Positions 21,715 through 40,770 are shown, counted from the first letter of the stretch. The stretch: DNA of 64,000 bases from an uncultured Solirubrobacterales bacterium (GCA_963767475.1 CAVYEI010000002.1:456851-520850); one strand, 5' to 3'. Program-made: numbers and translations. The notes: generated by a model from the letters alone, not told the origin.

Positions 21715-23732
21715 TCCTGACCCTCGCTCGCCCGCCGCTTGACCACCTCGTCGAGCTCCTTGACCACGTCGGGATCGCGCAACGTCGTGACGTCGCCCAG
21801 CTCGCGGCCCTCGGCGATGTCGCGAAGCAGCCGGCGCATGATCTTCCCCGAGCGGGTCTTCGGTAGGTCGTCGGCCCAGACGATCCGCTTCGGTCGCGCC
21901 AGCTTGCCGATCTTCAGGGCGACGTGCTCGCGCAGCTCGGCGACCATCTCGTCGTCGCCCGCGAGCTCGCCCTCGAGGGTGACGAAGGCGCAGATCGACT
22001 GGCCGGTGTCCTCGTCGGCTTGGCCGATCACCGCCGCCTCGGCGACCTTCGGGTGGCTGACGATCGCCGATTCGACCTCCGCGGTCGAGAGCCGGTGACC
22101 GGAGACGTTGATCACGTCGTCGACGCGGCCGATCACCCAGAAGTAGTCGTCGGGGTCCTTGCGGGCGGCGTCGCCGACGAAGTACGTCTGCTTGCCGAAC
22201 TTCGAGAAGTAGGTCTCGACGTAGCGCTCGTCCTCCTTGTAGAGCGTGCGCAACATCGCCGGCCACGGGCGGCGCAATGCGAGCAGTCCCTGCTCGTCCG
22301 AGACCTCGTTGCCTTGCTCGTCGAGCACCGCCGCCTCGATCCCCGGCAGCGGCGTGCCGGCCGAGCCGGGCTTCGCGGCCTGGGCGCCGGGAAGCGTCGT
22401 GATCATGATCTGCCCCGTCTCGGTCTGCCACCAGGTGTCGACAACCGGGCAACGCCCGCCGCCGATCACCTTCCAGTACCAAAGCCAGGCCTTCGGGTTG
22501 ATCGGCTCGCCAACGGTGCCCAGCAGGCGCAGCGAGGAGAGATCGTGCTGGTTGGGGTACCTCGCGCCCCACTTCATGCAGGCGCGGATCGCGGTCGGGG
22601 CGGTGTAGAAGATCGTCACGCCGTAGCGCTCGATCAGCTCCCACCAGATGTCCTTGTCGGGATAGTCGGGCCCGCCCTCCCACATCACCGATGTGGCGCC
22701 GTTGAGCAGCGGGCCATAGACGATGTAGGAGTGCCCGGTGACCCAGCCGACGTCGGCGCCGCACCAGTAGACGTCCTGATCGGGCTTCAGGTCGAAGACC
22801 AGCTTGTGGGTCGCCGCGACCCCGGTCAGATACCCCCCGGTCGTGTGCAGGATGCCCTTCGGCTTGGCCGTCGAGCCGGAGGTGTAGAGGATGAAGAGCG
22901 GGTGCTCCGCGTCGAGCTCGGCGGCGGGGCACTCGGCCTCGGCGGCCTCGATCGCCTCGTCGTAGTAGAGGTCGCGGCCCTCGGTCATCGCCACCTCGGC
23001 GCCGGTGTTGCGGACCACGATCACGGTCTCGATCGACGGCACCTCGCCGAGGAACGCGTCGACGGCCGGCTTGATCTCAGCCGCCTTGCCCTTGCGCCGG
23101 GCCGCGTCGACGGTGATCAGCGCCTTGGCCTCGGAGAACTGCATCCGATCCTTGACCGCGTCCGGCGAGAAGCCACCGAAGACGACGTTGTGCGGCGCGC
23201 CGATGCGCGCGCAGGCGAGCATCGCGACGGCGACCTCGGGGATCATCGGCAGGAAGATTCCAACGACGTCGCCGGCCTCGACGCCGCGCTCCTTGAGCAC
23301 GTTCGCGAGCCGCTGCGTGTCGCGAAGCAGGTCGGCGTAGGTGACGTCGCGCTCCTCGCCCTCCTCGCCGCGCCAGTGAAACGCCACCCGGTCTCCGAGG
23401 CCGGCCTCGACGTGGCGGTCGAGGCAGTTGTGCGAGGCGTTGAGCCTGCCGTCGGAGAACCACTTGAAGAACGGCGGGTCGGACTCGTCGAGCCCCTCGG
23501 TGGGCTCGGTGAACCACTCGAGGTCGCCCGCGAGCTTCAGCCACCAGGCATCGGGATCTGCCTTCGCCTGTTCATGGAGCGAGAGGTCCGTGACCAGCGC
23601 GGCCGCGCCGAAGTCCTCGGGCGGCTCGAAGATCTCCTGCTCGAGCAATGTTGTAAGACCGTTGACGGCCTGCGATTGGTCATGGCCAAGCTCCATCAGC
23701 ACTTCGATCCCGGCTGTATCCCCCGGAGACAC
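21711..23732 (-). CDS. acs: Acetyl-CoA synthetase (acetate--CoA ligase)
   Basis: 673 aa. AMP-binding motif LFILYTSGSTAKPKGILHTTGGYL, WWQTETG, and C-terminal PKTRSGKIMRR. The true start may be the internal MELGHD. Confidence 0.9.
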   Translation of the reverse strand: MSPGDTAGIEVLMELGHDQSQAVNGLTTLLEQEIFEPPEDFGAAALVTDLSLHEQAKADPDAWWLKLAGDLEWFTEPTEGLDESDPPFFKWFSDGRLNASHNCLDRHVEAGLGDRVAFHWRGEEGEERDVTYADLLRDTQRLANVLKERGVEAGDVVGIFLPMIPEVAVAMLACARIGAPHNVVFGGFSPDAVKDRMQFSEAKALITVDAARRKGKAAEIKPAVDAFLGEVPSIETVIVVRNTGAEVAMTEGRDLYYDEAIEAAEAECPAAELDAEHPLFILYTSGSTAKPKGILHTTGGYLTGVAATHKLVFDLKPDQDVYWCGADVGWVTGHSYIVYGPLLNGATSVMWEGGPDYPDKDIWWELIERYGVTIFYTAPTAIRACMKWGARYPNQHDLSSLRLLGTVGEPINPKAWLWYWKVIGGGRCPVVDTWWQTETGQIMITTLPGAQAAKPGSAGTPLPGIEAAVLDEQGNEVSDEQGLLALRRPWPAMLRTLYKEDERYVETYFSKFGKQTYFVGDAARKDPDDYFWVIGRVDDVINVSGHRLSTAEVESAIVSHPKVAEAAVIGQADEDTGQSICAFVTLEGELAGDDEMVAELREHVALKIGKLARPKRIVWADDLPKTRSGKIMRRLLRDIAEGRELGDVTTLRDPDVVKELDEVVKRRASEGQE

Positions 23733-23781: not shown

Positions 23782-24681
23782 TCATGGGTGGATCGCTCGC
23801 AAACCTTGCGGCCTCGGCAACTCAAGAGATTGCCGCTGACAGCGCGGCGGTTCGATAGTCGACCCGGATCGGTCATGGCTGGACCCCGAGGCGGTAGTGG
23901 GGGAATGCGATCGGCTCACGTCGAAGCCCAGGGCGGTTGAGATCTCGCCTGCGGTCGTGACCACTCGATCGATCAGCTCTCGTCGCCTCGCGTCGTGAAG
24001 ACGGTCAGCAGCCGCGGCAACGCCGACGGCTGCCAGCGGCACGCGTTCGTGCGAGAACACGGTCGTTGCCACGCAGGTCACTCCGGGCGTGGTGAGTCCC
24101 TCGTCGACCGCATATCCGCGATGGCGGCTTTCGACCAGCGCTCGCTCCAACTCGCCGAGAAGCCGAGGGCCACGCCGGGTGCGCCGCACGAGCTGTTGAT
24201 CCAGCGGAAAGAGGGCTTCGAGATGCGTTCGCGGCAAATGCATGAGAATCGCCCGACCGACCGCCGTTAAGTGAGCTGGCAGTCGCAGCCCGACCTGGCT
24301 GATCAACCGCAGAGGGGCTGACGGTGTTTCTTCCTTTGCGAGATAGAGAACCTCGTTGCCCTGAAGGATCGCCAGGTGGGAGGTCACGCCACATGCGAGC
24401 GAAAGGTCCCGTAGATACGGCCGCCCCAGCCAGGTCAGGGGCTCCCGTCGCAGGTAGGCGGTCCCGAGCGAAAACACTTCCGGCCCGAGCCCCCATGCAT
24501 GCTGGTCGGGGTAGTAGGTAACAAAATCCCGCTCGAGCATTACTTTGAGCAGCTGATAGGTGCTGGATCTCGGCAGACCGCAGCTCCGAGCAATCACCGT
24601 GGCCGGCACGGGGCGCAGCCGCCCCGACAGGAACCGCAGGACGGTCATGACCCGGTCAGCGGAGCGGGCGCCTTCACCCAT
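23782..24681 (-). CDS. IclR family transcriptional regulator
   Basis: N-terminal wHTH RVMTVLRFL...ATVIARSCGLPRSSTYQLLKVMLERDFV, then an IclR effector domain. Confidence 0.8.
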   Translation of the reverse strand: MGEGARSADRVMTVLRFLSGRLRPVPATVIARSCGLPRSSTYQLLKVMLERDFVTYYPDQHAWGLGPEVFSLGTAYLRREPLTWLGRPYLRDLSLACGVTSHLAILQGNEVLYLAKEETPSAPLRLISQVGLRLPAHLTAVGRAILMHLPRTHLEALFPLDQQLVRRTRRGPRLLGELERALVESRHRGYAVDEGLTTPGVTCVATTVFSHERVPLAAVGVAAAADRLHDARRRELIDRVVTTAGEISTALGFDVSRSHSPTTASGSSHDRSGSTIEPPRCQRQSLELPRPQGLRAIHP

Positions 24682-26257
24682 TTGATGCCACCCTTCCCAC
24701 TTGGCGCGAACCGCCGCCTCGTGCTGGCGACTGCGGCGCGATAGCCACTAGTCGTCCAGCCGGGTCGAAACTCACGCGCACGCGTCGACCCGGGGCGAGC
24801 TCGGGCGCCAAGGCCTCGTCGACGCGGAGGGTCGCGGTGCGCCCACCGTCGGTCTTTGTGCAGATCAGCTGACCTTGAACACGCGAAACCACGACGCCGG
24901 CCTCGGTCTCCGTCGGAGGAAACGGAACGACGTTGCCGCGTTCGTCTAGCACGTGGTCGCGGCCATTGCTGACGAACGCGGCGGCGACCGACTGCCCGAG
25001 GGCCACGGCCGAGAGGTGGACCGCCGCCAATCTGAGCACATCCCGGGCGGCGCCAATGCGAAACAGCGATTGCGTCTCGGCCGTTACATCTCCGTCGCCG
25101 GCCCGCAGGACCACGCGTATATCGTCATTCGCCGACAGTCCGGCGACCGCGACAGAGACGTTGGTCCCATCACTCGAGGTAACTGCGGCTAGCGCTCGCG
25201 CGCGACGGATCGACAGACGGCCCAGGAGAAACCGGCTTCCGCCGTGCCCGATCACCACCGGGACCCGGCGGTCCCTTGCAACGCGTACATTCGGAGCCCT
25301 CGGATCGACCTCGACGGCAACAACGGGCACTCCGAGATCACGAAGCGCCAGGCAGAGCCGGAGGCCGACCTGGCCAAGGCCGACGACGACGACATGCTCT
25401 GACCGGGGGATGGTGAGAGAGCCGACGATGCCGCTTAGTCGCGGCTCGAGCAGCCGGTTCACCAGGCCGGCCGTGAAGAGCACCGCACACAGGCCCGCGA
25501 CCAGGATCGCCAAAGAGCTCATCGCCTTAAACCAATCCGGGCCGTCGTCCACGAGCTCGTTGGGACCGATCGTGGCGATTGTTTTGACGGCGCCATAGAA
25601 GGACTCAACGAAGCTGGCGTCAAGCATGAGGACCGCGATCAGCACATCGATGACGAAGACGACGGCTAGGCCGAGGCTCCCGACCACCAGCATGCTCGAG
25701 CCGCTGTCGAGGGGGCGTAACTGCGACTGCATCCAGCGGCGAAGCCGCGCACGACGCGAACGCCCGCGCTCTCGGCGGAGAGTCTCCACGGTCGGGCCGG
25801 CGACACCATCCTCGACGGTGATCTGGCGCCCGGCGGCGTCGACCGTCATCAGGCAAGAGCCCGGCTTGAGGCAGGCAGCCACAAGGCTCGGGGCTGCGGC
25901 ATCCGCCATCGAGATGACCCGGCAGTCCGGCACGGCCCGGGCCAGCTGTGACGCGACTGTCCGCCCGAACATCGTCACGATCAAGCGCAGTCCCGGCCGC
26001 AAATGCTCGACGAGCAGGGCCATTCGAAGGGCCTCGATGTCGTCACGGGAAACGAGGATCACCGCACGAAAGTCCGAACGCACGGCCGTTCGCAATTCGC
26101 GGTCCGTCGGCGCACGCAGCCTGAGGACCTCGGCTCCAGCGGTCCCGAGGGTGGCTTCCAGCGCCTGCGCCAGGTCGCCTCTTCCGACCACGAGGATCGG
26201 GCGGTCGTCGTCCTCGGCGTCCTGCCAGTCGCCGGCGGCCGCCGCCGGCCGGTCCAT
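24674..26257 (-). CDS. Ion-channel-like membrane protein with RCK/TrkA-N domains
   Basis: Start taken at MDRPAAAAG, 14 nt after the upstream stop. Two TM helices flank TIATIGPNE. NAD-type fold VVVVGLGQVGLRLCLALRDLG. Confidence 0.65.
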   Translation of the reverse strand: MDRPAAAAGDWQDAEDDDRPILVVGRGDLAQALEATLGTAGAEVLRLRAPTDRELRTAVRSDFRAVILVSRDDIEALRMALLVEHLRPGLRLIVTMFGRTVASQLARAVPDCRVISMADAAAPSLVAACLKPGSCLMTVDAAGRQITVEDGVAGPTVETLRRERGRSRRARLRRWMQSQLRPLDSGSSMLVVGSLGLAVVFVIDVLIAVLMLDASFVESFYGAVKTIATIGPNELVDDGPDWFKAMSSLAILVAGLCAVLFTAGLVNRLLEPRLSGIVGSLTIPRSEHVVVVGLGQVGLRLCLALRDLGVPVVAVEVDPRAPNVRVARDRRVPVVIGHGGSRFLLGRLSIRRARALAAVTSSDGTNVSVAVAGLSANDDIRVVLRAGDGDVTAETQSLFRIGAARDVLRLAAVHLSAVALGQSVAAAFVSNGRDHVLDERGNVVPFPPTETEAGVVVSRVQGQLICTKTDGGRTATLRVDEALAPELAPGRRVRVSFDPAGRLVAIAPQSPARGGGSRQVGRVASNG

Positions 26258-26271
26258 GGAATCTGTGTCCG

Positions 26272-27531
26272 CTAGGCCCGAAACCGCCACGCCGCGTCCT
26301 CCCGGACGTAATGGGGGCTGCCGTCGACGAACGCCGCTACGACAGGGCTGCGGCCGATCAGACTCGCCGTGCTCTCCAGAGGACCATCCAGAACTGTCAG
26401 GTCGGCTCGCTTCCCGGCTTCGATGCTGCCGCGCACCCGCGATTGCCCCAGAACCCACGCACCGTTGAGCGTGGCGGCCGCCAGCGCCTGCTTTGGACTC
26501 CATCCGTACCGGTGGATCGCGAGAGCGACCGCCAAGGGCATCGTCGCGATCGAGGGTTGATCGGGCGCGAAGTCAGTGGCCACCGCGGCGATTGCGGCCG
26601 AGCCGGCCAGCAGGCGCCCCATCGACTCGCCAACCGTATCGGCGCGAAATAGCTCGCTTCCAGGCGCGAGCACGGCTGCGCAATCGTTTTCGGCGAGCCG
26701 CTGGAGATCGCCGCATCCGATGAAAGCTGCGCCGTCGATGGCTCGCGCCCCGGCGGTCAGCGCGGTGGGTATCGCGCGGGAGTTTGCAGCCCGGCAGCGC
26801 AGACGCAGCCCGAGATCAGTCGCCAGTCGGCCCAAACGGTCAGCCTGGAAGCTCGCGATCGGCGACGCCAGATCGAGTTCGACGGCGTTGACTTGCGGCG
26901 ACACGTTCCGCAGCACGGCGGCAACGTGCTGAGCCCAGGAGCCCGAGGTCGCGGGCTCCGATACGACATCGCTCAACACGGCCGTTGCAACAGCGGTGAT
27001 CGGCGGACCGCTTCCGCTGGGTGCAACGGTCGCGCCCGGCGATGAATCGGGCCCGGCCCATTCCCCGAGTTGGCCAGCGAGGGCCGTGGTACCGGACCTG
27101 AGCATTTGCTCGAGCACGCGGCGGGCAGACCTGGACACGGCGGGCACCGGGCGACCGGTCGTCGGGGCGCCGGCAGCCGAGGCGGGTTGCCCGTTGGCCG
27201 ACCCCCGCACACTCCAGGCCGACAGTGGGATACGAGTACGAGGATCGACGAATCCGGGGATGACCGTGCAACCGCTCGCATCCATCCGCAACTCGGCTTC
27301 TGGAGTCGGCTCGAGCGCCGAGATCATCGTCGAGGCGATGCTGATCGATGATGGCGTCAGTCGCTGTCGGTCAGCCTCGTCGAGACGCACGTAAGGCCGG
27401 CCGGGCTGGTCTGGAAGCAGGACCGCCGCGGCGCGATTGATCCAGACGCTCCGAGCCCCAGCAAGCTGCGAAGTATCGAACCGCTGCGACCGAGATTTCG
27501 ATCTCGCCGCCCGAGCCTCGAAGCCGTTCAT
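26272..27531 (-). CDS. Amidohydrolase-superfamily protein, HutI-like but lacking metal ligands
   Basis: 419 aa. [12 protein letters not shown] replaces the HxH motif (FVDSHTHL in the bona fide hutI at 37682..38851). The C-terminal [15 protein letters not shown] motif is conserved. ATGA overlap with the hutU stop. Confidence 0.6.
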
Positions 27532-29171
27532 CCGACCAGGGATGTACTGGCCATTGGGATTCGAACCCCATGGCGGTCCGCGGCCTCGACGGCCTCGCTA
27601 TAGCCGGCGTCCGCGTGGCGCAGGATCCCGGTCAAGGGATCGGCAGCAAGGGTGCGCTCGATCCGATCCCCGGCCTCCCGAGTCCCGTCGGCGACGATCA
27701 CCTGGCCGGCGTGAAGGGACTTGCCCATACCGACGCCCCCTCCATGGTGGAAAGAGACCCAACTCGCCCCGCAGGCGGTATTAACCAAGGCATTGAGTAT
27801 CGGCCAATCCGCGATGGCGTCGGAGCCGTCTCGCATGGCCTCGGTCTCACGCTCCGGCGATGCCACCGAACCAGCGTCGAGGTGATCTCGTCCGATCACG
27901 ATCGGGCCGCGCAACTCGCCGCTCGCGACCATCTCGTTGAACCGCATCCCGGCCAAATGCCGCTCGCCATAGCCGAGCCAGCAGATGCGAGCGGGGAGGC
28001 CTTGGAAGCTGACCGTCTCGCGGGCCTTGCGGATCCAGTCGACGATGTGCTCTTGGTCGGCGAAGAGCTTCAGAAGGGCCTCGTCGGTGCGATAGATGTC
28101 CTGTGGGTCGCCCGAAAGTGCCACCCAGCGAAATGGGCCCTTGCCCTCGCAGAAGAGTGGGCGGATGTATGCCGGGACAAAGCCCGGATACTCGAACGCC
28201 TCCCCGTCTCCGTGGTCGGCCGCCAGTCCTCGCAATGCGTTGCCGTAGTCGAACGCCTGAGCGCCATTGCGGCCCAGCTCCCGAATCGCGGCGACGTGAC
28301 CAAGGACGCTCTCCCCCACTTGCCGCAGGTACTCGTCCGGGTCCCGCTCCCGGAGTGCGGCTCCCTGCTCGGGCGTCAGCCCGGCCGGGAGGTATCCGTT
28401 AAGCGGATCGTGGGCGCTGGTCTGGTCGGTGACAACGTCGACCTCGACCCCGCGCCGTAGCAACTCGGGGAGGACATCCGCGGCATTTCCGAGGAGCCCG
28501 ATCGACAGTGGCCGCCCGGCGCGGCGAGCCGCCTCGAGCCGGGCGAGGGCGTCATCAAGGCTGACAGCGCGTTCGTCGAGGTACCCAGTCTTGATCCTGC
28601 GCTCGATCCGCTGCACGTCGACCTCGATGCAGAGCGCCGTGCCGCCGCAGAGGGTCACCGCCAACGGCTGCGCTCCGCCCATGCCTCCGAGGCCGGCCGT
28701 GACGACGGTGCGGCCGGTCAGGTCGCCGCCGAAGTGCTGGCGGGCGATCGCCGCGAACGTCTCGTAGGTCCCCTGCAGAATTCCCTGACTCCCGATGTAG
28801 ATCCAGGACCCTGCTGTCATCTGCCCGTACATCGTCAGGCCGGCCGCGTCGAGCTCACGGAAGCTGTCCCACGTCGCCCAGGCGGGCACCAGATTCGAAT
28901 TGGCGATCAGCACCCGCGGTGCCCCTTCGTGGGTCGCCACCACCCCGACCGGCTTCCCGGACTGAACCAGCAGCGTTTCTTCGTTCCCGAGTCGCTGGAG
29001 TTCGGCAACGATCGCCTGATAGCACTCCTTATTCCGGGCAGCCTTCCCGATGCCGCCGTAAACGACCAGCCGGTCGGGATCCTCGGCGACGTCCGGATGC
29101 AGGTTGTTCTCGAGCATCCGCAGGGCGGCCTCTTGTACCCAGCCCTTGCAGCGCAGACCCGAAGCCGTCAT
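27528..29171 (-). CDS. hutU: Urocanate hydratase
   Basis: 547 aa. [19 protein letters not shown] site. Urocanase pattern is present throughout. Confidence 0.9.
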
Positions 29172-29947
29172 TGAGTCACCTGCAGCGACTCAGCTCGAAT
29201 CGCGTCGAGGAGCTCGGCCTTCGGTCCCAGGAAAGCTGGGTCCGAGACCATCTCTGGGGCGCGCGGGCGCGGCAGGTCGACCTCGATCTCAGCCTTGATG
29301 CGGCCGGGACGGTTAGTCATGACCAAAACGCGGTCCGAGATGTAGATCGCCTCCTCGACGTCATGCGTAACAAAGAGAACCGTGAGCCGATGCTGCTCCC
29401 AGACCGAGGTCAGGAGCTCCTGCATGAGCTGCCGGGTCAAGGCATCGAGCGCGCCGAACGGCTCGTCCATGAGCAGGACCAGCGGGTGGTAAGACAGGGC
29501 CCGAGCAATCGCGACACGCTGACGCATGCCGCCTGATAGCTGGTTGGGAAGAGCGTCGGCGAAGTCCTCCAACCCGACCATGCTCAGGTGAGCGTCGGCA
29601 ATCTCCCGCCTTTCGGCCTTCGATGAGCAGCTGTCGCGCAGAGCGAACTCGATGTTCTGGCGCGCAGTGAGCCAGGGGAACAATGTGTAGGACTGGAAGA
29701 CGACGCCACGGTCGCGCCCTGGCCCGACGACCAGCTCACCGTCGACGCGCACCTCCCCGGCGGACGGCTCCTCGAGCCCGGCGACGATCGACAGAAGCGT
29801 GCTCTTGCCGCAACCGGACGTGCCGACGAGGGTGACGAACTCATTCGTTGCCACGGAAAGCGTGGCATCGCTCAGAGCTTCGACCTCCGACTTTTTGTCG
29901 GCGAACGTCTTGCCGATGCCTCGAACGTCCAGCTTCGTATCGGTCAT
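29168..29947 (-). CDS. ABC transporter ATP-binding protein (NitT/TauT family type)
   Basis: Walker [10 protein letters not shown], signature LSGGMRQRV, Walker [12 protein letters not shown]. Confidence 0.9.
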
Positions 29948-30831
29948 CGCCGCTCCTCCGCCCAGGAGAAGAGCCGTTTGCCGCTCGCCTTCATCAACTG
30001 ATCTGTGAGTAGGCCGAGCACACCGAGCACCAACAGGTAGCCGATGATCGTCTCGGTCTCGAAGAAGCGCTGAGCGGTCACGATCCGGTATCCCAGTCCC
30101 GAGGTCGCGGCGACTAGCTCTGCGAGAACCAGCCAGGTCCAGGCCCAGCCGAGGCTGATCCTCATCGAATCCCAGATTCCTGGGCCTGCGGCCCGGACGA
30201 TGATCCGGCTCAGGATTGCCCGATCCTTGAGACCCAGGGTGCGCCCGACGTCGATGAAATCGCCCGGAATCCGCCGGACGTTGTCCATGATCAGCAGGAC
30301 CTGCTGGAAGAAGGTCCCGAGCCAGATGATCAGGAACTTCTGGGTTTCGTCGGTTCCCACCCAGACGATCGTCAGAGGCACAAATGCGACGACCGGCATG
30401 TAGCGGACGAAGTCCACGAGCGGCTCCAGCGCAGCCTCCCAGATTCGGTAAGAGCCCGCCAGGACACCGAGCGGGATTGCCATCGCAGTCGCGATGGAGA
30501 ACCCGATCAAGATGCGATAGGAGCTGATCCCGATGTCTGACCAGAGCGTCCCGTCTTTGGCCAGCTCCACCAGCCGGTTGACGACGTCGCCGGGCCCGGG
30601 CAGGAACAACTCGTCCACCCAGCCCGCAGACGTGGCCACGTACCAGACGATGATCAGGGTGACGAAGACCGAGCTCGCCACACCCACCCAGGCGCGTGTG
30701 GACATCGAGCCACGCAGCGCCAGCGACCCCCGCTGGCGCTGCGCCCGGCGGCGGGGCTGAGCTGTGGTGGCCTCAGCCGCCGGCTTGGAGGAGGCGGGGT
30801 TGGCCTCCGTTGGGCTCGAAACCGGAGTCAC
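29944..30831 (-). CDS. ABC transporter permease
   Basis: 295 aa and polytopic, with an EAA-like loop (GRTLGLKDRAILSRIIVRAAGPGI). Confidence 0.85.
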   Translation of the reverse strand: MTPVSSPTEANPASSKPAAEATTAQPRRRAQRQRGSLALRGSMSTRAWVGVASSVFVTLIIVWYVATSAGWVDELFLPGPGDVVNRLVELAKDGTLWSDIGISSYRILIGFSIATAMAIPLGVLAGSYRIWEAALEPLVDFVRYMPVVAFVPLTIVWVGTDETQKFLIIWLGTFFQQVLLIMDNVRRIPGDFIDVGRTLGLKDRAILSRIIVRAAGPGIWDSMRISLGWAWTWLVLAELVAATSGLGYRIVTAQRFFETETIIGYLLVLGVLGLLTDQLMKASGKRLFSWAEERR

Positions 30832-31871
30832 TACTTACTCGCCGCCTCGACGAACGCCGGATCGATCAGGCCGTCGTAGTCAGGCTCAGCGCTCAGGATG
30901 CCGGCGTCCACGCCGACTTGAGCAACGGCCGGAACCGTCTCGTCTGCAAACGAGCCCGTCAACTCGGTCTTGTTCTGCTGGAGGTCGAAGAACTCGACGC
31001 CCTTGAACGCCGTCTCGAGGTCGGCGACGCTGGCGCCGACGCCCTCGGCGATGATGGCCTGCGCGGCTTCAGGATCGGAGCGATAGAACTCGATCGCCTT
31101 GTTCCAGGCCCGCATCAGGCCCGCGATCTGCCCTGGTCGCTCGCTGAGTGCGTCGCCACTCGCGATCAGCACGTCGCTGATCAACCCGGGCTTCTCGCCA
31201 GCGGTGTAGAGCAACTTGAACGACGAATTCTCGTTGAGGGCCGTGGTCAGATACGGCTCGTACGTGACGGCCGCGGGCACCCGTCCGGCGATGGCAGCGC
31301 TACCGGCATCAGCCGCGGGCAGCGGCACCTTTTCGACGTCGTCGATCGTCAGCCCTTCCTGTTGGAGGGCGTAGCGGAGGAGGATGTCGCTGGTGGTTCC
31401 CTCTTCGTAGGCCACGCGCTGGCCCTCGAGGTCGGCGATGGAACTGATGTCGGGACCGGCCAGCACTGCGTCAGCCGTCGTCGAGACGTCCTCCAGCAGC
31501 ACGATCTTGGCCTCCAGGCCAGCTTCAATCAGCTTGAGAGCGGTGTGCGTGGCGACGTTGGAGACCGCCATCTTCCCACTCGCGAATGCCGAGTTCAGGT
31601 CGTTGTCGGTGGTGAAGTTCGTCAACTCCACGTCGAGGCCCTCATCGGCGAAGTACCCCTCCGCCTGGGCCACGTACCACGGCCCGTAACCGATCCAGGG
31701 CTGGATGCCCATCTGAATCGTGCCGCTCTCGGGCTCTGCCGGGATCTCCCCTACGGGACCCGCGGGCTCGGCGTCATTGCTGCCGCAGGCCACCAGGGTC
31801 GCTGCGAACACGATCAGGGCCGCCAACAGAGCGAGCGGCCTCTTGCCGTCACGTCGCTTCACGCACGTCAC
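30831..31871 (-). CDS. ABC transporter substrate-binding lipoprotein (NMT1/THI5-like, sulfonate/nitrate/taurine type)
   Basis: Lipobox LVACGS. Periplasmic-binding-protein pattern. Confidence 0.75.
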   Translation of the reverse strand: MTCVKRRDGKRPLALLAALIVFAATLVACGSNDAEPAGPVGEIPAEPESGTIQMGIQPWIGYGPWYVAQAEGYFADEGLDVELTNFTTDNDLNSAFASGKMAVSNVATHTALKLIEAGLEAKIVLLEDVSTTADAVLAGPDISSIADLEGQRVAYEEGTTSDILLRYALQQEGLTIDDVEKVPLPAADAGSAAIAGRVPAAVTYEPYLTTALNENSSFKLLYTAGEKPGLISDVLIASGDALSERPGQIAGLMRAWNKAIEFYRSDPEAAQAIIAEGVGASVADLETAFKGVEFFDLQQNKTELTGSFADETVPAVAQVGVDAGILSAEPDYDGLIDPAFVEAASK

Positions 31872-33216
31872 CTCCTGTCGCTACTAGTCCAGCGGCGCGG
31901 ATTCGCGCCGCTGCTGCATGAGCCGGGAAGCCCTCCCACTCGGCGAGTGCCAGGGTTGCGCTGCTCAGCCTCTCCATACCCCCCTTATCGAGACGGGCGA
32001 TGGATACGGTCTTAGTGAAGGTCTCGGCCGTAACGCCCGACGAGACCCGAGCGAAGCGGTTCGTCGGCAGAGCGGCCGGCACGCCGATCGTGTAGTTGGC
32101 CGCCGCGAACGGTGTGTCCTGACCGATCAGAATCTCGGCGGCGTGGTGGAGCTCTGGGACCATCCGCTCCGGATTTTTAATCGCAAGCTGGAGGTGCTCG
32201 GGCGCGTAGGTGTTGGCGAACTCGACCGCGCTCGCGAGATCGTCAACCAACACGGCGCCTCCGACCCGGCCAACCGCGGCAAGCGCGTAACTCCGGCGTG
32301 GCTCGGGGAGGGCCGCGAGCTGCTCGGCGACGGCGCCTTGGACGGCCTCGACGAGGTCGCGGTCCACCGTAACCAGGATCGCCGCCGAGTCACTCCCGTG
32401 CTCGGCCTCGCTGAGAAGATCCGCCGCGACAAGACGCGGGTCCGCAGATGCATCAGCAATGATCATGCTCTCAGTCGGACCGAGCACCATCACCGTCGCG
32501 GTTCCGTAGCGCTGGACCTCCATCTGAGCGATCTGGACGGGAGTGCTCCCGGGACCGAGGACCTTAACCGCCTGGGGGATGGTCCTCGTACCGAAAGCGA
32601 GCGCGGCGATCCCGGCCGGGCCGTTGGTCCGAAACACGCGGGCGATGCCCAGCTCCGACGCCACGGCAAGAACGGCCGGGTCAACCCGTCCGTGCTGGCC
32701 CGGGACAGGCGGCACCACGATCGCAATGTCCGGAACGCCGGCGACGACCGCCGGTGTCGCGATCTGGATCAGCGACGAAGGATAGGAGCCCTTGCCACTG
32801 GGAACGAACAGGCCGGCGCTTGGGATCGGCACCACACGCTGCCCGACCTCCACGCCCGGCTCAAGCTCACGGAGCCAGTTCCGCTCACCGAGTGCGAACC
32901 CGTTGAAGGCGCGTACGCGCCCAATCGATGCGCGGATGGCATCGAGGAGGTCGTCCGAAATCTCCGTCTCGGCCCGGGCGAACTCATCCTCGGTCACCTC
33001 GAGGCCGCCGGGATCGACCGAGCACCCGTCGAACTCGAAAAGTGCTCGAGAGACGGCGTCGTCGCCGTTGTTCCGGACGTCCTCGATCAGGCGCCGGATG
33101 GCTGCGACCAGATCGGGGTCGAGCCCATCGCGCCCACGGCTGAGCAGGTGCTCCCGGCCGGCGGAATCGAGTTCTCGCCAGTTGATGACACGCACTGGCC
33201 CCACCGTCGAGCTCAT
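31849..33216 (-). CDS. Histidinol dehydrogenase family protein, non-canonical subfamily (paralog 1)
   Basis: 455 aa. LGPTESMIIADASADPRLVAADLLSEAEHGSDS aligns to the HisD signature, but with E in place of Q before AEH. Confidence 0.75.
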   Translation of the reverse strand: MSSTVGPVRVINWRELDSAGREHLLSRGRDGLDPDLVAAIRRLIEDVRNNGDDAVSRALFEFDGCSVDPGGLEVTEDEFARAETEISDDLLDAIRASIGRVRAFNGFALGERNWLRELEPGVEVGQRVVPIPSAGLFVPSGKGSYPSSLIQIATPAVVAGVPDIAIVVPPVPGQHGRVDPAVLAVASELGIARVFRTNGPAGIAALAFGTRTIPQAVKVLGPGSTPVQIAQMEVQRYGTATVMVLGPTESMIIADASADPRLVAADLLSEAEHGSDSAAILVTVDRDLVEAVQGAVAEQLAALPEPRRSYALAAVGRVGGAVLVDDLASAVEFANTYAPEHLQLAIKNPERMVPELHHAAEILIGQDTPFAAANYTIGVPAALPTNRFARVSSGVTAETFTKTVSIARLDKGGMERLSSATLALAEWEGFPAHAAAARIRAAGLVATGGDVREAT

Positions 33217-34526
33217 GGATAAAGACCTCGTGTGTCGTGGGCCTCGGCGACCCGCTGCACCGCGAGAAGCATCGCCGCGTCACGCAATGAAAGGCAACGC
33301 TCGCCGGCGACCGCGAGGACCGCCCGGCAGGCCGCATCGAGCTGCTCGGTGACGCGCCGATAGACCTCCTCGTCTGAGAACGCCCGTCCGTTGGCCTCCT
33401 GGAGGGCTTCCAGGTGACTCGCTATTACTCCCCCGGCATTCGCGAGGATGTCGGGGACCACCACGACTCCGGCCTCGCCCAAGAGGCGATCGGCGGCCAC
33501 GGAGATCGGGCCGTTGGCGGCCTCGACGACGATCCCCGCTTTGACGCCAGGCGCATTGGCGTCGCCGATCACGCCGGCAACGGAGGCCGGGATGAGCACG
33601 TCGCAGTCGGCTTCCAGCACTGACTCGCGATCGACAGGCTCGCCGGCACTGCTCGTCATCACCGTCCCATGCTCGCCGGCGGCGCTAAGCAGTGCGGCGT
33701 GATCGAGGCCATCCGGATCGAGGCGCCCCCCAGCCACGTCCGACACCGCGACGAGGCGAAAATCACCTCGCTCGGCCAGCGCCTGGGCCGCGGCCCGTCC
33801 GACCTCCCCGAAGCCGGCAATCGCAACTCGAATCGGCTTCGGCACCCGATGTTGGTTGCAGATCACCTCGAGCAGATGAGCGACACCGTGGCCCGTGGCC
33901 GTGCGGCGTACATCGGTCCCCCCCACGATCACCGGCTTGCCGGTGACCGGCGAACCAAAGGCACCTCCAGCCAGAGAGCGATATGTATCAAGGATCCACG
34001 CCATCTCCCGCGCGCCGGTTCCGATATCTGGCGCCAGCACGTCGCGGCCCGGACCGATTATCGGGGCGACCTCGCTCGCGTAACGCCTTGTGATCCGCTC
34101 GAGCTCATACGGAGTGTGGCTTTCCGGCGCGCAGCGGACGGCTCCCTTGGCGCCGCCGAACGGAATATCGGCCAAAGCGCATTTCCAGGTCATGCGCATC
34201 GCCAAAGCCTTGGTCTCGTCGAGAGACGCGAGATCGTGATAGCGGAGCCCGCCCTTCGCCGGACCCCGGGTCAGGCTGTGCTGGACCCGGTACCCGCGAA
34301 ACGTCTTGACCTCTCCTGAGTCGAGACGCACCGGAAGACTGACTTCAAGCGAGCGCCGTGGTCGCCTGAGGAACTCGCGCTGGCCGTCGTCGAGGTCGAG
34401 CAGATCGGCAGCGCGCGCGAACTGCGCTTCTGCCTCGCTGAGGTCGGCTGTCCCGAGGCGGTCAGCATCGGCCGCCTCCACCAGGGGAACGGGCTGAGCT
34501 ACGGGGCTGGGCGGTGCGGAAGTCAC
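33213..34526 (-). CDS. Glu/Leu/Phe/Val dehydrogenase family protein
   Basis: 437 aa. ALADIPFGGAKGAV catalytic-Lys box. Rossmann motif IAGFGEVGRAAA. GTG start is uncertain. Confidence 0.8.
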   Translation of the reverse strand: MTSAPPSPVAQPVPLVEAADADRLGTADLSEAEAQFARAADLLDLDDGQREFLRRPRRSLEVSLPVRLDSGEVKTFRGYRVQHSLTRGPAKGGLRYHDLASLDETKALAMRMTWKCALADIPFGGAKGAVRCAPESHTPYELERITRRYASEVAPIIGPGRDVLAPDIGTGAREMAWILDTYRSLAGGAFGSPVTGKPVIVGGTDVRRTATGHGVAHLLEVICNQHRVPKPIRVAIAGFGEVGRAAAQALAERGDFRLVAVSDVAGGRLDPDGLDHAALLSAAGEHGTVMTSSAGEPVDRESVLEADCDVLIPASVAGVIGDANAPGVKAGIVVEAANGPISVAADRLLGEAGVVVVPDILANAGGVIASHLEALQEANGRAFSDEEVYRRVTEQLDAACRAVLAVAGERCLSLRDAAMLLAVQRVAEAHDTRGLYP

Positions 34527-34567
34527 TGCTTGAAAGGTTGCGGGGCGGATAGGACGACCTCAGATAT

Positions 34568-34599
34568 GGGATACCGTCCAATTCGACAGTCGGTATCCC
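34568..34599. promoter_or_regulatory. Perfect 9-bp inverted repeat GGGATACCG-N14-CGGTATCCC in a divergent intergenic region
   Basis: Lies between the minus-strand operon start (34526) and the plus-strand IclR gene (34661). Candidate operator. Confidence 0.4.
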
Positions 34600-34660
34600 A
34601 TCGCGTCAAACATGCCTTGTCAAGGGCATCTTGCGCCGAATCTGCTTATATATGGAAAGG

Positions 34661-35524
34661 ATGGTGGTCTCAAGCGGATCGGCGGACCGGGCGCTGGAGA
34701 TACTGACCGACCTATCCGAGAGGGCCCTGCCGGTCGCGACAACGGTCCTATCGCGCGAGCATGGGATTCCCCGCTCCAGCCTGCATCGGCTGCTGCACGG
34801 CTTGGAGGCGCGCGGGCTGGCACGCTACGACGAGAACTCGCGAGGTTGGGTGCTTGGGTCCGAGGCCGCAGCGCTGGTCCCGGGCGTTGTGACGCTGGAC
34901 GATGGTCTCAGCGTCCTCGAAGCTTTCGACCGACAGACTCTCGATCTCGACCCCGACACGATCGCCGAGCGCAGCGGCCTGGACGCCGAACGAGTTCGCC
35001 GCGTCGCCCGGCAGCTCGAGAGCCACCGGCTCCTGACGAGAGACGGCACCGGCTACACGCTCGGCCCGCACCTGGCCGCGCTCGCTGCGCGGTTCGAACC
35101 GTTCGAACAGTTGCGGGCGGCAGCGCGACCCGTGCTGACGGATCTTCGAGATGCCACCGGCGAGACCGCCAGTCTGGTGATCCGCGACGGGAACTACGCG
35201 GTGTATCTGGATCAGGCCGAGAGCCGGCATGCACTGCGCCATGCGGGCTGGGCCGGTCGGTCGATTCCGCTGGAGGGCACCGCCGCCGGCGCCGCCCTGT
35301 CCGGTCGGGGCCGCGGCCCGCACGAGGCGACCGACGCGGTCGAGATCGGCGTGGCCGCCATCGCGCAGGCTGTTCGGTACCCACCGATCGGGGCCGCGGC
35401 CGTAAGCCTGATCGCCCCAGCTTCCCGACTCATGGGACAAGCGCGGCTGGACGCGCGCGCCGCCGTAGCGGAGGCAGCAGATGAAGTCGTGGCCCGGCTG
35501 GAGCGGAGTGCTCAGTCAAGCTGA
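34661..35524 (+). CDS. IclR family transcriptional regulator
   Basis: SD GGAAAGGA before the ATG at 34661 (alternative ATG at 34652). wHTH RALEILTDLSERALPVATTVLSREHGIPRSSLHRLLHGLEARGL. Confidence 0.8.
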   Translation: MVVSSGSADRALEILTDLSERALPVATTVLSREHGIPRSSLHRLLHGLEARGLARYDENSRGWVLGSEAAALVPGVVTLDDGLSVLEAFDRQTLDLDPDTIAERSGLDAERVRRVARQLESHRLLTRDGTGYTLGPHLAALAARFEPFEQLRAAARPVLTDLRDATGETASLVIRDGNYAVYLDQAESRHALRHAGWAGRSIPLEGTAAGAALSGRGRGPHEATDAVEIGVAAIAQAVRYPPIGAAAVSLIAPASRLMGQARLDARAAVAEAADEVVARLERSAQSS

Positions 35525-35534
35525 CGCTGAGGCG

Positions 35535-37685
35535 TCATGCGACCAAGAACCGATCGAGAACATTCTTGGTGATGCGCGCCACGTTGTTCTGGTATCGCGA
35601 GTGGGACAGGGCGCTTGTCCAGGAGATAGACCCGACCGAAAACACGAATCCGTTTCCGGGCGTTTCGAACAGCACCATGTCGGCGCGGATGAACGGATCG
35701 GAGGTGAGAGGAACGTAGTCCTGGAAGCCACGCGCTCGGGCGAGCACCAACGCATGGTCCGGCGAGCCGAGGAGAGGGTCGAGGCCATCCACCTCGTACC
35801 CGGCAGCCCCGCCGAAGCCCAGGCCAAAGTCGCCGATCGCCTCGTCGTCGCCGATGCCCTCGAACACGAACGCGGCCCGCGGGTCGAAGCTGTCGGCCTG
35901 GCGCTTGTAGAACGTCGCACCGCAAAAGCCCATGCCGACCGACTCGACGCCGACGAGCGCGCGTGGCGTCTCCTTGCGCTGCGACCAACGGCCGCCCGGC
36001 TCACCCGTAGCGGCGAGACGCCCTTCGCCGGGCTCGCTCTCCCAGAGGTCGGCGTGGCCGAGCGACCGCCGAACCTCGGTGACGTGGTCTCGCTCGGGAT
36101 GAACCCCGGTCACCATCGTGAACCCGTTGCCCCCCAGGTACATCAGCCGTCCGCCCGCGCCGAGATAGCCGTCCAGCGCCCTCATCTGCGAGTGGGTGGT
36201 GTATTCCGGATGACTTCCGGTGAGCACGGTCCGGTAGCGGCCGAGGAGGTCGTCCCCATGTTCGTGCACGTCCTCGTCGACGATCAGGTCGTGCGGGACC
36301 CGCTCATGGCGCAGCCAGTCGAGCAGGTAGAGGTCCGCGCCGAGGCCGTGCGGCGCTCCCGTCAGCCAGTAGCGATATGAGGGCCGTAGGCTTGGAAGGG
36401 GCCGGAGGCGGGAGGCGTGAACCACGCCCGAGCCGTCCTCGTGACGGTTGTATTGACTGAGCAGCCCGGTGGCAGCGACGTAGTGATCGTCTTCGCTCTC
36501 GATCACTGGGTCGAAAGGGGGCACGATGCGCTCGCCGGCGTATGCGAGATAGGTAAACGTCGGCAGCCAGACCGCGACCGCGGCCTTGGGCTCGCGCGAC
36601 CGGACCAGGAATGGGACCCTGTCGGTAGCACCTGACTCGGTTTCGAGCCGCAGTGCGTAGACGCCCGACTCGAGCTCCGGGAGTTTGATGCCGACATCGC
36701 TCTCCCACCCTGCATCCTCGAGATCGTCGGCGTGAAAGTGAATCGCCGCATACTCGGCCGGGGCCAGGCGCCAGTCGTAGGCCTGCCCCGACCACAAGTG
36801 TCCGGTCACCGCTCTCGTCGGCATGTTCACCAGGTCGGCATGCCATGAGTTGGCGCCGCAGTCGACGACTCGAGCCGTAGGTATCCCGATCGAGAAATCC
36901 CACGCCGCAAGAACGCCTTGAGAGGCTCTGTACTCACCTGCGGCGCTAAGACGTCGGATCTCCTCCGGCGCCGCCGCGCGCTCGAGAACGACTGGGGCCT
37001 CGAGCTTGCCGTCAAAGTGCCCCCGGGGGCGGCGGTCGCGATCCAAATGAGCGGCGATCAGATAGGGAAGCCCGTCCGCATCCAGCCTTTCGGAGCTGCA
37101 GCCTGTCGTTCTGCGGCTCGCGCTCTCCACAAACCCCGGCACGGTGGATTCCGGCTCGTGGTGGATCGCGGCCACCCCGTCGAGTCGCTCGAAGGTCGCG
37201 ATGACGAGATGCCACATTCGAGGCGCCAACGCGCGCTCGGTGCGGACGGCCGTGTGGCCGCCGATGATGAGCGCGACGTCGCCTTCGGGCATGAGGAACA
37301 AGCCATAGCCGCGTGACGAGCCGGGGCTCTCGAGCCACCTGGCCAGAAGGGCCTGCTTGCGGCCGCCGGGGCGGGTGGCGTAGACCCGGACGGCGAGAGA
37401 GAGAGCGTCGGGCGTCGGGCTGGAGGCACTTTCGCGAGCCACGGCATACGAGCCACGATCGATGCCCTGGAGCCGGGCCGCGTGGCTTGAGCCATATCCC
37501 GTGATCGGCTCTTCAACCGAGCCAGGCCCATCGGCCGAGGTGTCGCCGTGGAGCAGGCGCACCAGGCCCGCCTCGTACGGTTCGGGACTGCTGACCATAA
37601 AGCGCAAACGCTCGCCCGGCGCGGCGACCAGCGCGTCCGCGTATCCGGTCAGCTTGTCGCCGGCGCCCCGATGATCGGCAGTCAA
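35535..37685 (-). CDS. Large hypothetical protein, N,N-dimethylformamidase large-subunit-like
   Basis: 716 aa. The N-terminus LTGYADALVAAPGERLRFMVSS resembles, from memory, the start of DMFase beta-subunit family proteins. 4-nt overlap with the hutI stop. Assignment made without a search. Confidence 0.45.
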   Translation of the reverse strand: MTADHRGAGDKLTGYADALVAAPGERLRFMVSSPEPYEAGLVRLLHGDTSADGPGSVEEPITGYGSSHAARLQGIDRGSYAVARESASSPTPDALSLAVRVYATRPGGRKQALLARWLESPGSSRGYGLFLMPEGDVALIIGGHTAVRTERALAPRMWHLVIATFERLDGVAAIHHEPESTVPGFVESASRRTTGCSSERLDADGLPYLIAAHLDRDRRPRGHFDGKLEAPVVLERAAAPEEIRRLSAAGEYRASQGVLAAWDFSIGIPTARVVDCGANSWHADLVNMPTRAVTGHLWSGQAYDWRLAPAEYAAIHFHADDLEDAGWESDVGIKLPELESGVYALRLETESGATDRVPFLVRSREPKAAVAVWLPTFTYLAYAGERIVPPFDPVIESEDDHYVAATGLLSQYNRHEDGSGVVHASRLRPLPSLRPSYRYWLTGAPHGLGADLYLLDWLRHERVPHDLIVDEDVHEHGDDLLGRYRTVLTGSHPEYTTHSQMRALDGYLGAGGRLMYLGGNGFTMVTGVHPERDHVTEVRRSLGHADLWESEPGEGRLAATGEPGGRWSQRKETPRALVGVESVGMGFCGATFYKRQADSFDPRAAFVFEGIGDDEAIGDFGLGFGGAAGYEVDGLDPLLGSPDHALVLARARGFQDYVPLTSDPFIRADMVLFETPGNGFVFSVGSISWTSALSHSRYQNNVARITKNVLDRFLVA

Positions 37686-40745: not shown

Positions 40746-40770
40746 CGCCTACGACACCCGCTTCATGTCT

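Follow-up and report, generated by a model that had tools for sequence, protein, structure and literature searches.

The nine-gene operon on the minus strand at positions 23782-34526 of the window, a 64,000-nucleotide stretch of DNA from an uncultured Solirubrobacterales bacterium, is best read as a system for importing and oxidising an imidazole alcohol, since its HisD-like enzyme (HisD') is not biosynthetic and belongs to a subfamily whose genes are found time and again together with imidazole-pathway and Hut genes. We consider it moderately likely that the cell takes up an imidazole three-carbon alcohol or polyol, oxidises it to an acid, makes histidine from this acid, and breaks the histidine down through the Hut pathway. 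An earlier, sequence-only reading of this DNA had an imidazole (amino-)alcohol imported, oxidised, and fed into the Hut pathway through hutU. Import and oxidation stand as the best reading, but entry is more likely at histidine than at hutU, because in other loci it is an ammonia-lyase gene that adjoins the HisD-like gene.

All nine open reading frames were present, and the gene number, junction sizes, and families listed earlier agreed throughout with the ORF calls and profile searches. The junctions, in gene order, are overlaps of 4, 23, 1, 4, 4, and 4 nt, a gap of 14 nt, and an overlap of 8 nt, so that seven of the eight are overlaps of 1 to 23 nt. The 14-nt gap requires the ATG at 26257 as the start of the TrkA_N gene; two observations favour this start, namely that the longer 5' extension lacks the coding GC pattern and that the orthologue in a related locus (L021) aligns only from there. 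Terminator signals did not exceed those of shuffled sequence. The arrangement exceeds chance, and the linkage of HisD-like, importer, and hut genes recurs in other loci. The nine genes are best explained as one translationally coupled, presumably cotranscribed, catabolic unit.

The HisD' gene (HisDa; 31849-33216, minus strand) encodes a PF00815 protein (389 bits) that passes the TIGR00069 model (379.8 bits versus a cut-off of 243.8) and resembles HisD (EC 1.1.1.23; E. coli 1KAE, Brucella 4G07), the enzyme of these two family models, in fold and length. The zinc sphere of HisD consists of Gln259, His262, Asp360, and His419' (PMC11382572, section 2.6). HisD' retains both zinc-ligand histidines (His262 and His419), Glu414, and the catalytic Glu326/His327 pair (APEHL in all 119 homologs), and would be expected to carry out the same chemistry, the removal of four electrons that turns a primary alcohol into an acid. 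Unlike HisD, it carries Glu in place of the axial Gln259 and Asn in place of the equatorial Asp360, an amide/carboxylate swap at two of the four protein zinc ligands, and the Asn366-His367 pair of the GDYxxGxNHxLPT motif is Pro-Ala; all four substitutions are invariant in 119 of 119 homologs. The subfamily forms a clade separate from 19 canonical HisD proteins (support 100/100) in which HisD' has a normal branch length, and the neighbors of HisD' are catabolic. The sequence-only reading would have failed had this been a normal biosynthetic enzyme in an organism with no other hisD; a canonical hisD adjoins hisB on another contig (C6), HisD' is not in a his operon, and HisD' is not the biosynthetic hisD. 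Members of the subfamily are at present labelled "histidinol dehydrogenase" in public annotation. A second paralog of the subfamily, HisDb (42613-43938, minus strand), has hutH just downstream of it and an SDR gene on its upstream side; it is 47% identical to HisDa, has the same Glu, Asn, Pro, and Ala residues, and falls inside the Glu/Asn clade on a long branch.

The family is known to use substrates other than imidazoles, since HpsN is the DHPS-3-dehydrogenase of the hpsRNOP pathway in Cupriavidus pinatubonensis (PMC11382572). HisD' and its importer could accordingly act on a sulfonate of the DHPS or cysteinolate type, as had been suggested earlier, or on another small alcohol, unrelated to urocanate metabolism, and the binding protein is indeed nearest to the aliphatic-sulfonate subfamily model and to SsuA structures. 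However, it scores just below the SsuA_fam cut-off (156 bits versus 163.5); its TauA score is 46 bits (cut-off of 304). The HpsN motif G-R-Y-A/S-H, which carries the zinc- and sulfonate-binding His126 (PMC11382572), is absent from HisD', which has G-K-G-S-Y at that place; HpsN keeps the Gln/Asp zinc ligands, whereas the HisD' subfamily has Glu/Asn; and HisD' scores 240 bits to HisD structures versus 171 bits to HpsN. No sulfolyase family (SuyAB, Xsc, or CuyA) was present among the neighbors of the window and of 13 related loci, as judged from their annotation, and the neighbors are instead paralogs of IGPD and HisC, histidine ammonia-lyase (HAL), and hut genes. A non-imidazole substrate is therefore very unlikely, and the sulfonate alternative is not supported. 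Because HpsN oxidises a diol with normal Gln/Asp ligands, the ligand swap alone is no sign of a hydroxy substrate. HpsN offers a close logical template for the imidazole-alcohol reading: it is a HisD-family enzyme recruited to catabolism with short-chain dehydrogenases, acting on a three-carbon diol ahead of hydroxyacid oxidation and transamination. By this analogy SDR/MDR would correspond to HpsO/P, HisD' to HpsN, and the FMN-dependent oxidase described below to sulfolactate dehydrogenase.

We compared the operon with 13 further loci, taken from the metagenomes and genomes of actinobacteria that are related to this one and for the most part belong to its class. Around the HisD' subfamily we found a recurring set: an IclR regulator, a Zn-ADH, a HisC-like transaminase (HisC'), a divergent IGPD (IGPD'), an SDR, HisD', an NMT1-type ABC importer, and an FMN-dependent 2-hydroxyacid oxidase (FMN_dh), which ends the full module with or without a PTE-family hydrolase. 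The SDR and FMN_dh are the most constant neighbors of HisD'. IGPD' is a conserved subfamily of its own, with 267 homologs that are 72-83% identical and with the changes HH to HV, RR to ES, and K to R; the HisC' proteins narrowly miss the hisC cut-off. Besides these two, the HisD' subfamily is repeatedly linked to histidine ammonia-lyase, urocanase, HutI, and HutF; urocanase or histidine ammonia-lyase lies less than 10 kb away in 7 of the 13 loci, in at least two hut operon layouts. The order is IclR-MDR-IGPD'-SDR-HisD'-SBP-perm-ATPase-FMN_dh-hutH-hutU-PDF-hutF-hutI in L053 and L054 (in L054 neither IclR nor MDR was found), MDR-IGPD'-HAL-SDR-HisD'-hutU-hutF-hutI in L055, GDH-HisD'-PTE-hutU-hutI-hutF-TrkA_N-ABC in L021, and HisC'-HisD'-HAL in L023, while in L022 the full module is followed by PTE-hutU-hutI; L059-L061 add to this synteny. 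Members linked to hut genes are spread through the clade, and the hut operons to which they are joined follow two different layouts. About half of the subfamily loci (L046-L048, L056, and eight genomes of families f40 and f78) have no hut gene within 10 kb. The window operon is best explained as a trimmed copy of this recurrent, undescribed actinobacterial module, in which the front block has been replaced by a glutamate dehydrogenase (GDH) gene. IGPD', SDR, MDR, HisC', and FMN_dh are all missing from the window copy, which leaves the HisD' step as the only one that it encodes; the best FMN_dh homolog in this genome (53% identical) is on contig C5.

Since the module has paralogs of exactly hisC, hisB, and hisD, HisD' could instead be a second histidinol dehydrogenase in a phosphate-free replay of the IGPD, HisC, and HisD steps whose main role is to provide histidine, not to break down a new compound. 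The TIGR00069 score, the retained catalytic Glu/His pair, and the lack of an enzyme for a hydroxyacid product in the window version are consistent with such salvage. We nevertheless regard it as unlikely, given that two of the four zinc ligands and the Asn366-His367 pair are altered in every member, that SDR and FMN_dh would have no role in that route, and that the fusion to hut genes and the catabolic-type IclR/ABC set point to degradation.

The Hut pathway appears to be divided between two operons. The hutU gene of the nine-gene operon (27528-29171, minus strand) scores 902 bits to TIGR01228 (cut-off of 375), falls below the cut-offs of the thiourocanate models, and is predicted to encode an ordinary urocanate hydratase. 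The gene that follows (HutI', 26272-27531, minus strand) encodes an amidohydrolase that fails the hutI model (86 bits versus 298), has lost the HxH motif to RxR together with further metal ligands, and retains 61 of 118 family-conserved columns versus 112 of 118 in the HutI of L021; in a search of 5.8 billion proteins its best homolog shared 39% identity with it. HutI', described earlier as a ligand-less HutI paralog, is by these features a degenerate imidazolonepropionase relic rather than a partner enzyme. The nine-gene unit thus lacks a functional imidazolonepropionase, and the true hutI (37682-38851) belongs to an adjacent operon upstream (hutH, PDF-like, hutF, hutI, and DMFase-like; 35535-42384, minus strand), in which hutH (637 bits), hutF (611 bits), and hutI (334 bits) score above their cut-offs and a DMFA2_C domain match marks the DMFase-like protein. 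No hutU was found in this adjacent operon, and the 25 nt between hutH and the PDF-like gene leave no room for it. Since the upstream operon has no hutU, the two operons complement each other. Together hutU and the adjacent hutH, hutI, and hutF, all of which pass equivalog models, match the five-step HutF branch of the pathway (hutH, hutU, hutI, hutF, and a deformylase), whose end product, glutamate, fits the GDH of the operon; the difference is that hutU here stands apart from the other hut genes, embedded after the importer and HisD', and that the hutI copy linked to it is dead.

With its relic hutI and a divergent IclR gene that is itself partly degenerate, the island may be undergoing decay in this genome. 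The whole region could even be rearranged, partly decaying, horizontally acquired DNA in which HisD', the importer, and hutU simply lie side by side without a coherent function. The partial effector domain of the divergent IclR, the absent front block, and a second, genus-type hut cluster in the genome fit this explanation, as do the absence of the HisD' subfamily from 42 other genomes of the genus searched and 44 genomes of the family sampled and the closeness of hutU to the copies of another family (it shares 77-80% identity with the hutU of L021, L022, and family f3 genomes, versus 67% with the genus-type copy). On the other hand, the branch of HisD' is of normal length and none of the residues invariant in the subfamily is lost; the intact hutU, ABC, and GDH genes share 53-80% identity with their partners in other modules; the arrangement of GDH, HisD', and the binding protein is repeated in L021 and L059; and the upstream hut operon, which has no hutU of its own, makes the window copy useful. 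We therefore consider mere juxtaposition improbable.

The first gene of the operon (33213-34526, minus strand) has ELFV domains and looks like a true GDH. It scores 362 bits against the Thermotoga GDH and retains the motifs GPAKGG, MTWKCA, GGAKG, APD, and GGVxxS; GPAKGG, GGAKG, and GGVIAS align with the Thermotoga enzyme, and the glutamate-binding Lys and Ser (Lys89 and Ser380 in C. symbiosum numbering) and the catalytic Lys (Lys125) are present. The best NCBIfam equivalog, GdhB_Halo, gave 413 bits against a cut-off of 620, which says little because these models are lineage specific. With its glutamate-specific residues retained, the enzyme described earlier as "Glu/Leu-DH-like" is not supported as anything unusual. 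The importer is a complete NitT/TauT-type set. Its NMT1/SsuA-type binding lipoprotein (30831-31871, minus strand; PF09084/PF13379) has the lipobox LVAC-G, and the gene directly follows HisD' in L022, L053, L054, L059, L060, and L061. The permease (29944-30831, minus strand; PF00528) is 47-66% identical to those of L021, L022, L053-L055, and L057, and the ATPase (29168-29947, minus strand; PF00005) is 64-72% identical to those of other modules. The eighth gene (24674-26257, minus strand) encodes a two-TM pore protein that has an N-terminal Rossmann-like domain together with a TrkA_N/RCK domain (TrkA_N, 2.9e-18, 66 bits; Ion_trans_2 weak, E = 0.0095) that is 57-60% identical to its orthologue in the equivalent cluster of L021; in both, sequence and hydropathy place TIGPN rather than T-V-G-Y-G at the filter-like position.

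In the proposed route, the lipoprotein-dependent ABC system would import an imidazole-bearing three-carbon alcohol or polyol, candidates being imidazolyl-propanediol, imidazole glycerol, and histidinol; our literature search found no documented abundant natural source of these compounds. HisD' would then oxidise the primary alcohol to a carboxylate in an NAD-dependent, four-electron reaction, yielding either histidine or imidazole-lactate or imidazole-glycerate, which would reach histidine through imidazole-pyruvate. Were the product anything other than histidine, unlinked paralogs would have to supply the further steps. Histidine would be converted to glutamate by hutH, hutI, and hutF from the adjacent operon, hutU from the nine-gene operon, and a deformylase, the HutG role presumably being taken by the PDF-like or DMFase-like protein, and GDH would deaminate the glutamate or recycle it for a transaminase. 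We infer the substrate, the direction, and the order of steps.

More tentatively, and with somewhat less than an even chance, uncultured Thermoleophilia and their relatives may have an undescribed pathway in which HisC', IGPD' with its altered metal/phosphate pocket, HisD', the SDR/MDR pair, and the FMN hydroxyacid oxidase act on an unphosphorylated imidazole polyol that the cell imports (imidazole glycerol and imidazolyl-propanediol are examples) and make from it histidine for the Hut pathway. Such a pathway would be the imidazole analogue of the DHPS/sulfolactate route, although with imidazole-pathway paralogs and hut genes as partners in place of sulfolyase genes. Coote and Hassall, in about 1969, reportedly found that Pseudomonas/Comamonas degrade imidazolyl-lactate via imidazolyl-pyruvate and histidine, and we know of no genes assigned to that pathway. 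The order of hydroxyacid oxidation, transamination to histidine, and Hut is what FMN_dh, HisC', and HAL would suggest by analogy, but the HisD', IGPD', and SDR steps have no counterpart there. If the proposals hold, the histidinol dehydrogenase family would have, next to HisD and HpsN, a third functional branch in the HisD' subfamily, with a different zinc coordination set; the conserved divergent IGPD and the HisC paralog would gain a function, as biosynthetic enzymes recruited together into catabolism; imidazole alcohols or polyols would be an unrecognised nutrient with a new feeder route into Hut in abundant uncultured soil actinobacteria; and one genome would hold two partial hut operons complementing each other.

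The last gene of the operon (23782-24681, minus strand) encodes an IclR-family regulator (HTH_IclR and IclR_C), and an IclR gene heads the full modules of L022, L023, L047, L053, and L060. A divergent IclR-like gene (34631-35524, plus strand; Pfam HTH_IclR, 4.3e-15; partial IclR_C, 4.8e-14), with a coding GC-frame pattern of 0.77/0.54/0.78, occupies the apparent 1-kb gap upstream of the operon. We infer the roles of these regulators. The 104-nt divergent promoter region between the IclR-like gene and GDH holds a perfect palindrome with 11-nt arms, ATGGGATACCG-N14-CGGTATCCCAT (34566-34601), which is unique within the window, had no match in 100 shuffles, and is a candidate operator. The sequence-only reading had included neither the divergent IclR-like gene, the palindrome, the adjacent hut operon without hutU, nor HisDb.

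The nine consecutive genes at 23782-34526, all on the minus strand in the ORF listing, were identified with Pfam and NCBIfam models. From the upstream end, they encode a Glu/Leu/Phe/Val-type dehydrogenase (33213-34526; Pfam ELFV domains), the HisD-like protein HisD' (31849-33216; PF00815, 389 bits), an NMT1/SsuA-type binding protein (30831-31871; PF09084/PF13379), an ABC permease (29944-30831; PF00528), an ABC ATPase (29168-29947; PF00005), urocanate hydratase (27528-29171; TIGR01228, 902 bits against a cut-off of 375), the amidohydrolase HutI' (26272-27531; only 86 bits with the hutI model, cut-off 298), a TrkA_N protein (24674-26257; PF02254) and an IclR regulator (23782-24681; HTH_IclR and IclR_C). 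Together with the junction count, which returned overlaps of 4, 23, 1, 4, 4 and 4 nt, a gap of 14 nt and an overlap of 8 nt, these results confirmed the operon of the sequence-only reading in coordinates, gene order and junctions. The 14-nt gap presupposes the ATG at 26257 as the start of the TrkA_N gene; this start was preferred because the longer 5' extension lacks a coding GC pattern and the orthologue in metagenomic locus L021 aligns only from there. The promoter scan found no sigma-70-like site, and the terminator scan gave matches only at the background level. Only 49 nt beyond the last operon gene, the IclR regulator, an acetyl-CoA synthetase gene follows in the same orientation (21711-23732, minus strand) and might be co-transcribed with that gene.

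The apparent gap of about 1 kb upstream of the operon is occupied by a divergent IclR-like gene (34631-35524, plus strand). The 104 nt between the first operon gene and this gene contain a perfect palindrome, ATGGGATACCG-N14-CGGTATCCCAT (34566-34601), which occurs once in the window and had no match in 100 shuffles. The nine-gene unit is therefore served by a divergent control region of its own, in which the palindrome is the obvious operator candidate. The product of the IclR-like gene has two stretches resembling an HTH, and its IclR effector domain is limited to the first 70 positions; the gene may be rearranged or degenerate.

Farther upstream, the same strand carries a hut operon of hutH (40771-42384), a PDF-like gene, hutF, hutI and a DMFase-like gene. 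This operon lacks hutU, and the spacer between hutH and the gene after it is only 25 nt long. The Hut pathway is split in the window genome, with hutU in the nine-gene operon and hutH, hutI and hutF in the neighbouring one. A complete genus-type cluster, hutH-hutU-PDF-hutF-hutI, is located elsewhere in the genome (contig C2:720-727 kb). The genus-type hutF (C2:721526-722848 in the window's genome, G000; 7527-8785 in locus L051) matches as four separate pieces, suggesting a frameshifted or broken gene, unlike the intact hutF of the window. Beyond the neighbouring hut operon is a second HisD-like paralog, HisDb (42613-43938, minus strand), which is 47% identical to HisD' and sits on a very long branch in the tree. 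An SDR gene precedes HisDb (42613-44801, minus strand, for the pair), and hutH follows it across a 228-nt spacer that holds an inverted repeat with 16-nt arms (42497-42532). This arrangement echoes the SDR-HisD'-HAL order (HAL, histidine ammonia-lyase) of other loci.

We then compared HisD' with HisD proteins of known structure. It retains the catalytic Glu-His pair as well as two His ligands, while four positions differ: SQAEH is replaced by SEAEH, GDY by ANY and TNH by VPA. The changes Gln259Glu, Asp360Asn, Asn366Pro and His367Ala are invariant across 119 homologs of 56-73% identity, and Glu326, His327, His262, Glu414 and His419 are retained in the same set. HisD and HpsN, the DHPS-3-dehydrogenase of the HisD family, coordinate zinc through the same ligand set (two His, one Asp, one Gln), and the hallmark of HpsN is the motif G-R-Y-A/S-H (PMC11382572). 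In HisD', Gln/Asp has become Glu/Asn, so that amide and carboxylate are exchanged between two ligand positions, and we infer that metal binding is retained but retuned. At the place of the HpsN motif, HisD' has G-K-G-S-Y. Because of the zinc-ligand changes and this different motif, HisD' qualifies neither as a typical HisD nor as an HpsN, and the suggestion that the operon handles a sulfonate-type substrate was not supported. In the maximum-likelihood tree, the HisD' subfamily forms a clade of its own (support 100/100) that excludes 19 canonical HisD proteins, among them those of the same order. HisD' is also not the sole HisD of the organism: a third hisD, on contig C6, directly adjoins hisB and has the canonical residues QAEH, APEHL, GDYAAGSNHVLPT and VH. 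A search of genome contigs with the single HisD' query returned only canonical HisD from unrelated phyla (33-39% identity).

The gene contexts of HisD' were compared in 13 other loci with the subfamily and in eight genomes of families f40 and f78. Locus L060 contains IclR, a Zn-ADH (MDR), a HisC-like transaminase (HisC'), a divergent IGPD (IGPD'), SDR, HisD', an NMT1 binding protein, permease and ATPase. L061 follows this order from HisC' onward and continues with a PTE-family hydrolase and an FMN-dependent 2-hydroxyacid oxidase (FMN_dh), while L022 has the whole module set followed by PTE, hutU and hutI. In L053 and L054, the one-strand order is IclR, MDR, IGPD', SDR, HisD', ABC, FMN_dh, hutH, hutU, PDF-like, hutF and hutI, except that neither IclR nor MDR was detected in L054. 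L055 carries ABC, MDR, IGPD', HAL, SDR, HisD', hutU, hutF and hutI, and L023 carries IclR, MDR, HisC', HisD', an overlapping HAL, a 436-aa protein, FMN_dh and SDR. The window copy forms a supported subclade with L021 (GDH, HisD', PTE, hutU, a true hutI at 302 bits, hutF, the same TrkA_N protein and ABC genes) and L059 (GDH, IclR, a 70% identical HisD' and a binding protein). The tree and gene orders show that GDH stands in this subclade in place of the MDR-HisC'-IGPD'-SDR block; import and the HisD' reaction are the only steps encoded there.

A gene for urocanase or histidine ammonia-lyase occurs no more than 10 kb from HisD' in the window and in 7 of the 13 other loci; about half of the subfamily members have no hut gene nearby. 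Since HisD' is linked to two different hut layouts and the hut-linked members are spread over its tree, the connection with imidazole catabolism is characteristic of the subfamily and not an accident of the window. The proposal that the operon imports and oxidises an imidazole alcohol for the Hut pathway was thus supported in outline by a recurrent module with hut genes. A literature search confined to papers available without subscription found nothing relevant on this gene combination or on imidazole-lactate or imidazole-glycerol catabolic genes. The conserved 436-aa protein directly follows HisD' or HAL (L023 12867-14177; L047 11332-12586, where it is in three pieces). It had no Pfam or NCBIfam match and is possibly a missing pathway enzyme. 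L045 (14185-21341) has a urocanase homolog (54% identity across the portion covered) that adjoins hydantoinase A/B and a gene resembling acetone-carboxylase gamma, and an SDR-HisD'-FMN_dh trio lies about 10 kb away; the urocanase region may represent a different imidazolone or hydantoin branch.

IGPD', which public annotation names imidazoleglycerol-phosphate dehydratase, constitutes a separate conserved subfamily; its 267 homologs, of 72-83% identity, all come from Thermoleophilia-type metagenome bins. In six members, HH of the first metal motif is changed to HV, RR of GIRRFG to ES, and Lys of the second motif to Arg. The corresponding positions in plant IGPD structures contact a metal and the phosphate, and the changes would fit a substrate without a phosphate ester. 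The IGPD' proteins of L022 (8645-9286), L053, L054, L055, L060 and L061 have the C-terminal sequence AGVKGTLD. The HisC' transaminases scored just under the hisC cut-off (273.5 and 241.8 bits versus 276.55). The window operon is a shortened version of an uncharacterised module that recurs in other loci and in which the HisD, IGPD and HisC paralogs all form distinct subfamilies; this takes the finding beyond a single odd operon.

The window dehydrogenase, named Glu/Leu-DH-like in the sequence-only reading, aligns with Thermotoga GDH at 362 bits. It retains both residues that bind the glutamate side chain (Lys of GPAKGG, Ser of GGVxxS) as well as the catalytic Lys. It reads as a true glutamate dehydrogenase, and a role as a histidine, amine or new amino-acid dehydrogenase was rejected on account of the retained glutamate-binding residues. 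The window hutU is ordinary, scoring far over the urocanase cut-off and under both thiourocanate models. A special urocanase clade tied to HisD' was likewise rejected, since the hutU genes found near HisD' share 65-80% identity with that of the window and occur in at least two ordinary hut layouts.

All full modules could be read as a funnel to histidine, with the substrate inferred from gene neighbours, and three routes are each compatible with the module enzymes. In a phosphate-free replay of biosynthesis, IGPD' would convert imidazole glycerol to imidazole acetol, HisC' would form histidinol, and HisD' would oxidise histidinol to histidine. In an imidazole analogue of the DHPS pathway, SDR and MDR would interconvert imidazole acetol and imidazolyl-propanediol, like the dehydrogenases HpsO/P, and HisD' would oxidise the diol to imidazole-lactate, like HpsN; FMN_dh would then yield imidazole-pyruvate, and HisC' or another transaminase would yield histidine. 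If oxidation came first, HisD' would produce imidazole-glycerate, IGPD' would dehydrate it to imidazole-pyruvate, and HisC' would aminate the product. SDR and FMN_dh are the most constant neighbours of the module; the DHPS-like route would use both, whereas the biosynthetic replay would leave both idle. In the subclade of the window, L021 and L059, the substrate might yield histidine directly, or unlinked enzymes might complete the conversion. GDH would clear Hut-derived glutamate or recycle 2-oxoglutarate for a transaminase.

The HisD' subfamily was found in none of 42 other same-genus genomes searched (36 plus six more), none of 44 same-family genomes sampled, 6 of 400 sampled genomes within the class, and 11 of 400 genomes of the phylum sample, nearly all of the latter from one family. 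The window hutU is 77-80% identical to hutU of another family, f3, and of metagenomic loci L021 and L022, but only 67% identical to the hutU carried by all same-genus genomes. The distribution and these identities fit acquisition of the unit by transfer. Base composition was dropped as a sign of transfer: the GC3 of the operon (0.72-0.85) is inside the genome spread (mean 0.81, SD 0.10) and gives no evidence either way. Among the f40 and f78 isolates, the HisD' gene of the one f40 genome annotated has housekeeping genes as neighbours, hrcA-dnaJ on one side and MFS transporter-lepA on the other, which gave no functional clue. No module or hut gene was found within 10 kb of HisD' in the eight f40 and f78 genomes. 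The Glu/Asn HisD members at L037-L044 are a Phe361/Cys365 variant.

HutI' has RxR in place of HxH and has lost the other His ligands, in agreement with its earlier description as a ligand-less paralog. A role as a partner enzyme was not upheld: HutI' keeps 61 of 118 family-conserved columns, against 112 in the HutI of L021. Among 5.8 billion proteins, the closest relative of HutI' shares only 39% identity with it, and all its relatives are ordinary imidazolonepropionases with mutual identities of about 70%. Of the operon genes, the one for HutI' shows the weakest coding GC pattern, and hutI still follows hutU in L021, L049 and L050. HutI' can be read as a degenerate relic of a hutI that once followed the window hutU, its reading frame having stayed open against a GC-rich background; a newly acquired non-catalytic role is conceivable.

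The TrkA_N protein carries a Rossmann-like domain at the N-terminus and an RCK domain, together with two transmembrane helices that flank a pore-like loop of sequence TIATIGPN. The filter position reads TIGPN, versus TVGYG, and the L021 orthologue (16582-17991; 57-60% identical) has the same TIGPN, the gene being hut-linked in both loci. The protein resembles an RCK-gated pore whose filter is not of the potassium type, and one guess is that it handles ammonium or cations during the pathway, which, with GDH acting on the glutamate, would free as many as three ammonia molecules from each histidine.
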